Shown: positions 54,623-55,351 of the stretch, piece after piece
Layout: each line of letters begins with the position of its first letter
How positions within the stretch are numbered: position 1 is the stretch's first letter
From: Deltaproteobacteria bacterium
GTDB taxonomy: Bacteria > JAEEML01
Length of the DNA: 55,351 bases
Reading direction: 5' to 3'
Assembly: GCA_016283195.1 (NCBI GenBank)
Contig: JAEEML010000025.1
Coordinates: 1-55,351, forward strand
Translations under genes and position numbers: made by a program
The notes under the pieces: generated by a model
Told to the model about the DNA's origin: nothing
Database searches by the model: none
Seen by the model: the letters and a program-made list of their open reading frames with translations, nothing else

Positions 54623-55351
54623 ATGAATAATAAAGATGCAGATTATGAAACCGAGCGGAAAAAGGCTTTTCTATATATCGAAGACGGCGAATATGATACG
54701 GCCAGTGAAATATTAGATGAAATTTGGGAGGTGGATCCGGAAAATGCCTGGGTTTATATAGGGCGCTATTTAATAGAAAATAAGTTGGAATCGCTGGAAG
54801 ACTTAGAATACGATGAATCGTATGATGTACTAGAGAATTCCGACCACACAACTTGGCTTGAATATAATGAAGAAAGTCGCTATTGAGGTTAAAGATCAAG
54901 GCTTTTTCGGTTCAATATTTGGTTCAACACACACAGAATATAAAACAGTTACTGAAAGATTAATCATTTACCAGATAATAATGCGGCTAAAGTAACCCAA
55001 TATGGCTATTTATATACATGGAAAGAGGCCCAAAGAGCCTGTCCTCCTGGTTGGCGCTTGCCAAGCAAAGCAGATTTTGAAGAATTACTAGATTATGTCG
55101 GCAAGGATAACCAAACACGGGCGAAAAACTTAAGAGCCACCACCTGTGATGATGGTCTTGACACTTATGGCTTTGGGGCGCTTCCCGCCGGCCGCTACGA
55201 GGGTGGCGCTTACTACCTTTTCGGTTACTGCGCCTACTTCTGGTCGGCCACGGAGGGCGGTACCTACCGCGCCTACAGCCTGTACTTAGGTAATGGCGGT
55301 GCGTATCTGGACAACGACTACAAGGTTTACGCCTTCTCCGTGCGTTGCCTC
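54623..55351 (+). pseudogene. Frame-disrupted TPR-like + FISUMP (Fibrobacter succinogenes major paralogous domain) gene, truncated by the window end
   Basis: Three pieces: 54623-54886 (TPR-like, KKAFLYIEDGEY...DPENAW), 54867-54995 in another frame (GFFGSIFG), and 54956-55351 (YGYLYTW...ACPPGWRLPSKADF...GFGALPAG...FWSATE...AFSVRCL), the last with no start of its own and in-frame stops upstream. Confidence 0.8.
55187..55351 (+). other. Putative DGR variable repeat (VR) in the FISUMP C-terminus
   Basis: Abrupt codon shift: 1 of 55 codons ends in A, and Tyr is TAC 10 times versus TAT once, while the upstream part of the same frame has TAT 5 times and no TAC. It ends in the conserved AFSVRCL. Confidence 0.6.

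Follow-up and report, generated by a model that had tools for sequence, protein, structure and literature searches.

Does the 3' end of a FISUMP gene in an uncultured bacterium carry a variable region (VR) written by a DGR and, if so, where is the machinery that wrote it? The question is raised by the last nucleotides of the window, i.e. the whole stretch of 55,351 nucleotides analysed here, which is the entire contig C18. The bin to which it belongs comprises 190 contigs and 3.22 Mb; its completeness is rated at 100% from marker genes and its contamination at 4.18%. Sequencing runs in which parts of the window occur come from animal-gut metagenomes; they contain no more than 17% of the sampled words and leave 55200-55351 uncovered. 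A sequence-only reading had noticed that the composition of the FISUMP frame changes sharply at position 55187, had ascribed the segment from there to the last base to a DGR, and had placed the corresponding cassette downstream or in trans.

A composition break in a decayed FISUMP gene

A direct in-frame recount of the segment 55187-55351 returned the figures of that reading, all of which are correct and far from chance. A single codon out of 55 ends in A (TTA), and tyrosine is encoded by TAC 10 times and by TAT once, as against five TAT and no TAC in 54956-55186 (Fisher's test for TAC/TAT, segment versus upstream, p = 0.0014). As a reference for the genome we used 930 long ORFs, in which TAC makes up 28% of the Tyr codons and A-ending codons 18.8% of all codons. 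Against this usage, the probability of finding at most one A-ending codon in 55 is 1.4e-4, and that of finding at least 10 TAC among 11 Tyr codons is 2.5e-5. GC is 0.60 in the segment versus 0.44 upstream, and GC3 0.78 versus 0.35. When 80 tails of the genome were compared with their upstream 240 nt, only 8 showed a GC rise of more than 0.10, the window tail having the largest shift of all (+0.19); the composition shift is thus not a general property of FISUMP tails. The starting point given for the segment was also about right: DNA similarity to paralogs sets in at 55164-55171 and continues through the contig end, and the first hypervariable codon, a CGC, lies at 55193.

Could chance, or the ordinary compositional bias of a segment rich in Tyr, Gly and Ala, account for this break? 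The segment is indeed short (55 codons) and rich in few amino acids. However, it is the synonymous choice that is skewed (TAC in 10 of 11 cases against a genome share of 0.28, with the probabilities given above), the same scaffold is found in 10 other tails, and the control pairs of tails described below do not display the pattern. We consider this explanation highly improbable.

The frame in which the break occurs was assigned to the FISUMP domain. It is matched by PF09603 with 78-80 bits (cut-off 33.9), a partial match, and by TIGR02145 with 89.9 bits (cut-off 41.65); PF07603 (Lcl_C, which we take to be the former DUF1566) matches the same frame more weakly than PF09603. The domain named in the sequence-only reading therefore stands, both profiles scoring above their cut-offs, but the state of the gene had been overlooked. 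The frame opens behind a TGA (54953-54955) and lacks a start codon, the earliest in-frame one being a TTG at 55058. No signal peptide is found in the window copy. When aligned with 23 paralog domains, it turned out to lack their conserved "IG.Q.WMAEN" block, and its frame is shifted near 54953 compared to intact paralogs. Without start codon, signal peptide and WMAEN block, and with its frame shifted, the window FISUMP gene is thus beheaded, frameshifted and decayed. Despite the broken gene, its tail still reads through 132 codons without a stop. The intact paralog on C187 has an N-terminus that is signal-peptide-like by eye, and 2-4 codons separate the tail from the stop in intact paralogs. 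Directly 5' of the decayed gene is an acidic ORF of 87 residues (54623-54886, plus strand). It matches TPR weakly, at 19 bits and below threshold, and runs into the first part of the 42-codon remnant ORF listed in Table 1.

The window stops inside the block of similarity, which the contig end cuts about 9-20 nt 5' of the position of the stop in the closest paralogs. That the contig ends in sequence common to other tails, as had been suspected, is confirmed by its last 15 nt, which recur identically in three other tails (Table 1) and which probably caused the contig break.

Table 1 Coordinates of the features described in the window
Feature	Position	Strand	Evidence
42-codon ORF in a different frame, remnant of the first strand of the domain (..EYKTVT..)	54867..54995	+	three-frame translation, paralog alignment
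FISUMP (Fib_succ_major) reading frame	54956..55351	+	open at contig end; profile positions 36/40 to 186
DNA-similarity block shared with paralog tails, VR-like segment	55165..55351	+	identity to paralogs
Span of the 26 hypervariable NNY codon columns	55193..55333	+	first CGC at 55193, last TAC at 55331-55333
Scaffold 18-mer encoding FWSATE	55238..55255	+	recurs in bin tails
Last 15 nt of the contig (..SVRCL)	55337..55351	+	identical in the C96, C136 and C187 tails

Codon pattern and predicted fold of the paralog tails

The bin contains 114 matches to PF09603. Using BLAST and nhmmer, the scaffold of the window tail was recovered in seven other tails of the bin, on C187, C136, C126, C96, C31, C46 and C106. 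A scan of the metagenome with the scaffold pattern yielded eight loci, five of which are on contigs with the lengths of bin contigs while three are unbinned (L087, L091 and L092). All eight are FISUMP gene ends, i.e. target genes. The family therefore numbers at least 11 tails, and the proposal that dispersed FISUMP paralogs have this scaffold in common holds for 8 of the 114 bin matches, the window tail included, and for the 3 unbinned contigs. The FWSATE 18-mer is identical in 5 bin tails, and is found at 10 sites when one mismatch is allowed and at 16 sites when two are allowed. None of 40 other genomes contained a tail match, all of them being kin at the level of the same domain only. A scan of genome contigs with the 18-mer gave 61 loci, only three of which (L074, L030 and L063) are FISUMP tails, with no RT or TR within their 2-kb flanks; the remaining loci were rejected as chance matches in GC-rich genomes.

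The bin also contains short, beheaded remnants of FISUMP tails, at L010:1493-1584 (corresponding to C108:3218-3309, plus strand), C110:248-396 (plus strand) and L004:465-518 (corresponding to C126:20196-20249, minus strand). The intact tail and the remnant on C126 are separated by some 500 nt of antisense sequence, by its look a candidate toxin-antitoxin pair.

Among the eight bin copies, the tail block is 63-83% identical in DNA, compared to 46-69% for the 5' halves of these domains, which were aligned via their proteins. Over the 28 pairs, identity at codon positions 1/2/3 is 0.59/0.61/0.43 upstream of the tail, which is the normal pattern, and 0.68/0.71/0.79 within the tail, where the pattern is inverted. 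In length, four classes of tails can be told apart: 171, 174, 177 and 189 nt. Among the six closest ones (C18, C187, C136, C126, L087 and L091), 2.4-8.1% of the scaffold sites differ, as against 42-66% of positions 1-2 of the hypervariable codons. Tails also differ at sites that are not adenine in any copy. The scaffold drift may be overestimated by these figures, since some of the columns with 2-3 amino acids may be template-adenine sites too.

Codons were then compared across 10 of the 11 tails (L092 was left out), a column being defined as hypervariable when it contained at least four amino acids. This applies to 26 of the 59 columns scored, and these 26 columns are interleaved with fixed scaffold codons. 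On average, they contain 3.15, 2.92 and 1.65 distinct bases at positions 1, 2 and 3, respectively, and 13 of them have the same third base throughout. NNY accounts for 93% of the 254 codons in hypervariable columns versus 67% of the 326 codons elsewhere. The residues encoded are Y, N, D, G, S, R, L, V, I and others; K, M and W never occur, E occurs once and Q three times. A small number of exceptions to NNY exist in these columns, such as GAG in the window copy and CAA in C31 and C46. Thus, when VR is compared with VR, hypervariability is confined to what would be the adenine positions of AAY template codons. As judged from this comparison, the pattern of the tails is that predicted for the AAY-template signature of a DGR, and it fits randomised adenines of AAC/AAT codons, not point mutation plus selection. 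Adenine specificity, by which DGRs are defined, would show directly only against a TR, and none was found (see below); it is the signature that is read from the VR-to-VR comparison. The DGR-type variable-region signature claimed for the segment is hence seen independently across 10 paralog tails. Like the VR of a DGR target, the tails lie at the 3' end of the gene (in the intact paralogs) and within a domain modelled as a C-type-lectin fold.

For a control, 75 of 102 nhmmer tails were kept, all with near-full profile coverage, the end motif and no stop. Third positions are the best-conserved ones in 24 of the 28 family pairs, versus 38 of the 2,202 pairs formed by the other 67 tails. When only pairs with an overall identity of at least 0.62 are considered, the numbers are 23 of 26 for the family versus 3 of 63 for the others; these 63 pairs average 0.77/0.77/0.56 at positions 1/2/3, i.e. 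the normal pattern.

These results bear on an explanation in which no DGR was ever involved, the tails being the product of gene conversion among paralogs followed by strong diversifying selection at binding-site codons. In its favour, scaffold variants are shared in a mosaic manner: C187 has GCG CTT at its 5' end in common with C18 (the window), and GCT TTT plus TTG near its 3' end in common with L091. Possible donors are also at hand in the truncated tail copies on C18, C108, C110 and C126. However, selection on point mutations would be expected to yield NNR codons as well (those for K, E, Q, W, M) and to leave synonymous changes at third positions. What is observed instead is a large excess of NNY, no K, M or W, a third base fixed in half of the hypervariable columns and near saturation at positions 1-2. 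Furthermore, the other recently duplicated FISUMP tails of the genome, i.e. the control pairs above, are normal. We regard an origin by conversion and selection alone as improbable.

The fold of the domain was examined with a model of the intact C187 member of the family (202 residues), built on 24 aligned paralog domains (pLDDT 89.4). In an exhaustive VIA-align search, the top match of this model is TvpA of the Treponema denticola DGR (2y3c; Z 10.6, rmsd 3.7 over 155 residues), to which it is 12% identical in sequence. TvpA is presumably an FGE-type domain, not a FISUMP domain. Further matches are the Lcl C-terminal domain (Z 9.2), TaqVP (5vf4; Z 8.5) and Mtd (1yu0; Z 8.2). Best Z values of 7-8 are common in VIA-align for models that have no real match, and therefore only the top rows carry weight. 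Foldseek returned no match at E <= 0.001 in the PDB, its best one being a weak C-type-lectin match, the C-terminal domain of Legionella Lcl (E 5.9e-3). The domain of the FISUMP family is thereby predicted to be a lectin fold of the DGR-target type, in agreement with the sequence-only reading.

Search for the RT, the template and Avd

Three RTs are matched by PF00078 in the bin, on C156, C108 and C172. The C156 RT (407 residues; L021:1114-2334, minus strand) belongs to the UG26 class (PADLOC, 1e-150 over its full length), and an RT-5 RNA (RF03026) is located 5' of it (L021:2393-2511, minus strand; 49.8 bits versus a gathering score of 45.7). The C108 RT (L023:3-572, minus strand) is a contig-cut paralog of the C156 RT, with 82% DNA identity over 1.4 kb. 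The C172 RT (462 residues) displays a weak UG26 match (6e-30). Motif 4 of DGR RTs contains SQ, [LIV]GxxxSQ, while that of the bin RTs reads GSPLSP and GSPVAN. Neither the PF00078 search nor PADLOC found an RT of the DGR clade in the 190-contig bin, and no A-biased repeat was found near any of the bin RTs. The UG26-class pair looks like a defence-type RT that is no part of a DGR. We also considered the UG26 RTs as a non-canonical DGR RT; this is unsupported, as they come with an RT-5 RNA of their own and with no A-biased repeat nearby. One UG26 RT copy is located 2.6 kb from the FISUMP remnant on C108, on the opposite strand.

Avd (PF05635) has 0 matches in the bin, while a control genome, that of Bacteroides thetaiotaomicron, does match; Avd is not known to be universal among DGRs. 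As for the template, none of the tails or repeats behaves like one, the highest share of mismatches falling on template adenines being 25 of 41 (0.61). When the 102 tails were compared with the whole bin, the best such share was 0.59, and again no template was found. Two sets of candidates were rejected. Firstly, the C126 tail contains 11 AAY codons, yet it is an in-frame FISUMP gene end, and only 13-25 of its 26-48 mismatches are on its adenines. Secondly, the matches on C110 and C108 that lie outside annotated FISUMP domains are short remnants of gene ends in which AAY codons are lacking. The eight metagenome contigs with the scaffold yielded no RT, TR or Avd, and the scaffold has 0 matches in viral contigs, phage records and plasmid records. 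The bin assembly does not contain a complete DGR, its RT, TR and Avd all being absent. The cassette that had been postulated downstream or in trans was thus found neither in the 190-contig bin nor on the eight scaffold-bearing metagenome contigs, and the search that the sequence-only reading had called for, i.e. for a TR differing almost only at adenines next to a DGR-type RT, returned neither of the two.

Downstream of the tails, no consistent hairpin or IMH-like element was seen. A strong hairpin (CCCGCC-loop-GGCGGG) is located 3' of the C126 and C28 tails and of the C108 remnant. In C187, C136 and L087, the closest to the window tail, the hairpins are other, weaker ones, and the window itself stops 5' of this region. 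An Rfam search of the GC-rich regions 3' of the tails gave nothing relevant. Separately, the bin contains a dispersed, hairpin-rich repeat of about 280 nt, in at least 15 copies that are 75-88% identical: at L002:1040-1316 (corresponding to C187, minus strand), at C46:6168-6419 and on at least 13 other contigs. The copies on C187 and C46 are just 3' of FISUMP tails. In an alignment, at least one hairpin of the repeat shows compensatory changes, and there is no Rfam match at E <= 1. The repeat may be a family of small RNA genes or a MITE; it probably contributes to assembly breaks.

Origin of the tail and comparison with known systems

The account that we favour, and hold to be probable though well short of certain, is that the window tail was written by a DGR and is now an orphan, probably frozen in a dead gene. 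According to this model, a TR with AAC/AAT codons, randomised at its adenines, would have been copied as cDNA by mutagenic retrohoming, and the DGR would thereby have written the VR of a FISUMP target gene of C-type-lectin fold. The family of at least 11 tails on dispersed paralogs would represent a multi-target arrangement. The cassette (TR, DGR-clade RT and Avd) would since have gone from everything searched here, the tails would have drifted slightly and come to differ by small indels, and the window copy, in its beheaded and frameshifted gene, would no longer be rewritten. As the cassette was not found, the tails have drifted and the window gene is broken, the most likely status of the VR is that of an orphan whose rewriting has ceased. 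The signature, the family, the fold, the lack of a cassette in the assembly and the decay of the gene are shown here; we infer the DGR authorship of the tails and the present freezing of the window copy.

Alternatively, the window tail may be an active remote target, still rewritten in trans, together with the other tails, by a cassette that is unassembled, unbinned or carried by a mobile element. The bin is in 190 contigs, the break is inside the VR, and DGR repeats assemble and bin poorly; absence from the assembly is therefore not absence from the cell. Binning did miss members of the family, three of whose tails are on unbinned contigs. The low scaffold divergence among the six closest tails and the tail frame that remains open although the gene is broken also point in this direction, and trans-acting DGRs with remote targets are documented (PMC5758913, PMC10907252). 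On the other hand, the TR of such a cassette must fit the scaffold pattern that was searched, yet all eight metagenome matches proved to be target genes, and a bin rated as complete contains no DGR-type RT or Avd. Moreover, given the four length classes and the scaffold differences at sites other than adenine, one present-day TR cannot have written all tails. In PMC5758913, the criterion for remote targets is that differences be A-to-N only, with minor exceptions. We judge continued rewriting in trans to be unlikely, with a chance that is nevertheless worth reckoning with.

A variant of the orphan account was also considered, in which the genome keeps DGR-written tails without a resident DGR and uses beheaded in-frame copies as silent cassettes that are recombined into expressed FISUMP proteins. 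The candidates would be the window copy and the remnants on C108, C110 and C126, and the mosaic scaffold variants would be the trace of such recombination. This is a long shot. If true, it would be a hybrid of retroelement-made diversity and antigenic variation of the gene-conversion type.

How does the frozen orphan tail that we favour compare with systems already in print? In a survey by Wu et al. (2018; PMC5758913), Fib_succ_major is grouped with DUF1566 and DUF823 in category "d" (CLec2) of DGR targets, which makes up 14% of DGRs and whose VRs are exemplified by Legionella LdtA. A 2024 survey of MAGs lists 43 Fib_succ_major DGR targets (PMC11661182). Such targets resemble the window family in having PF09603, a C-terminal VR in a short protein and NNY-type hypervariable codons; unlike them, the window VR has no paired RT, TR or Avd, and the window gene is broken. 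The Treponema denticola DGR, described in PMC5758913 as having TvpA and seven non-adjacent targets, resembles the window family in its many dispersed targets of one scaffold, and TvpA is our best structural match. According to that same text, its RT and TR are present and its targets differ from the TR only at adenines, whereas in the window family both tail length and scaffold sites are variable, and a TR was not found.

Remote targets, RT-less paralogs with remnant TR-VR homology and incomplete loci diversified in trans have also been reported (PMC7517822, PMC10907252). Published kinase-partnered DGR targets are paralogous and dispersed through the genome like the window family, and the same idea has been put forward for them, namely that the diversification components are removed once a variant is fixed. 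As described there, the genomes in question still carry DGRs elsewhere, while the window bin has none, and the lectin subclass and the partners differ. In Thiohalocapsa PB-PSB1 (PMC10907252), DGR loci are incomplete and targets are diversified in trans, some of them with TIR domains; remote or incomplete loci and a TIR-bearing member (unbinned L091, TIR-TM-FISUMP) are likenesses to the window family. For PB-PSB1, RTs, TRs and diversification at read level were shown, whereas the window family was compared as assembled tails. Both the kind of system and the target class (FISUMP targets, RT-less paralogs) are already described, and the value of the present locus is therefore that of a well-documented case, not of a new mechanism. 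About a tenth of the 114-member FISUMP repertoire of an uncultured bacterium would owe its binding tips to targeted hypermutation, by a machinery that was not found. If the cassette is truly lost, the family would be a clear example of a DGR that generated paralog diversity which was then frozen; if it has only escaped assembly, the bacterium possesses a DGR that serves 11 targets or more.

The TIR-bearing member is encoded on unbinned L091 (1899-3269, minus strand). Its 457 residues comprise a TIR domain at the N-terminus (TIR_2, 49.1 bits), a hydrophobic segment resembling, to the eye, a membrane span, and a FISUMP domain at the C-terminus whose tail belongs to the hypervariable family. Like the TIR-bearing DGR targets of PMC10907252, the protein may be a diversified sensor to which a TIR effector is coupled.
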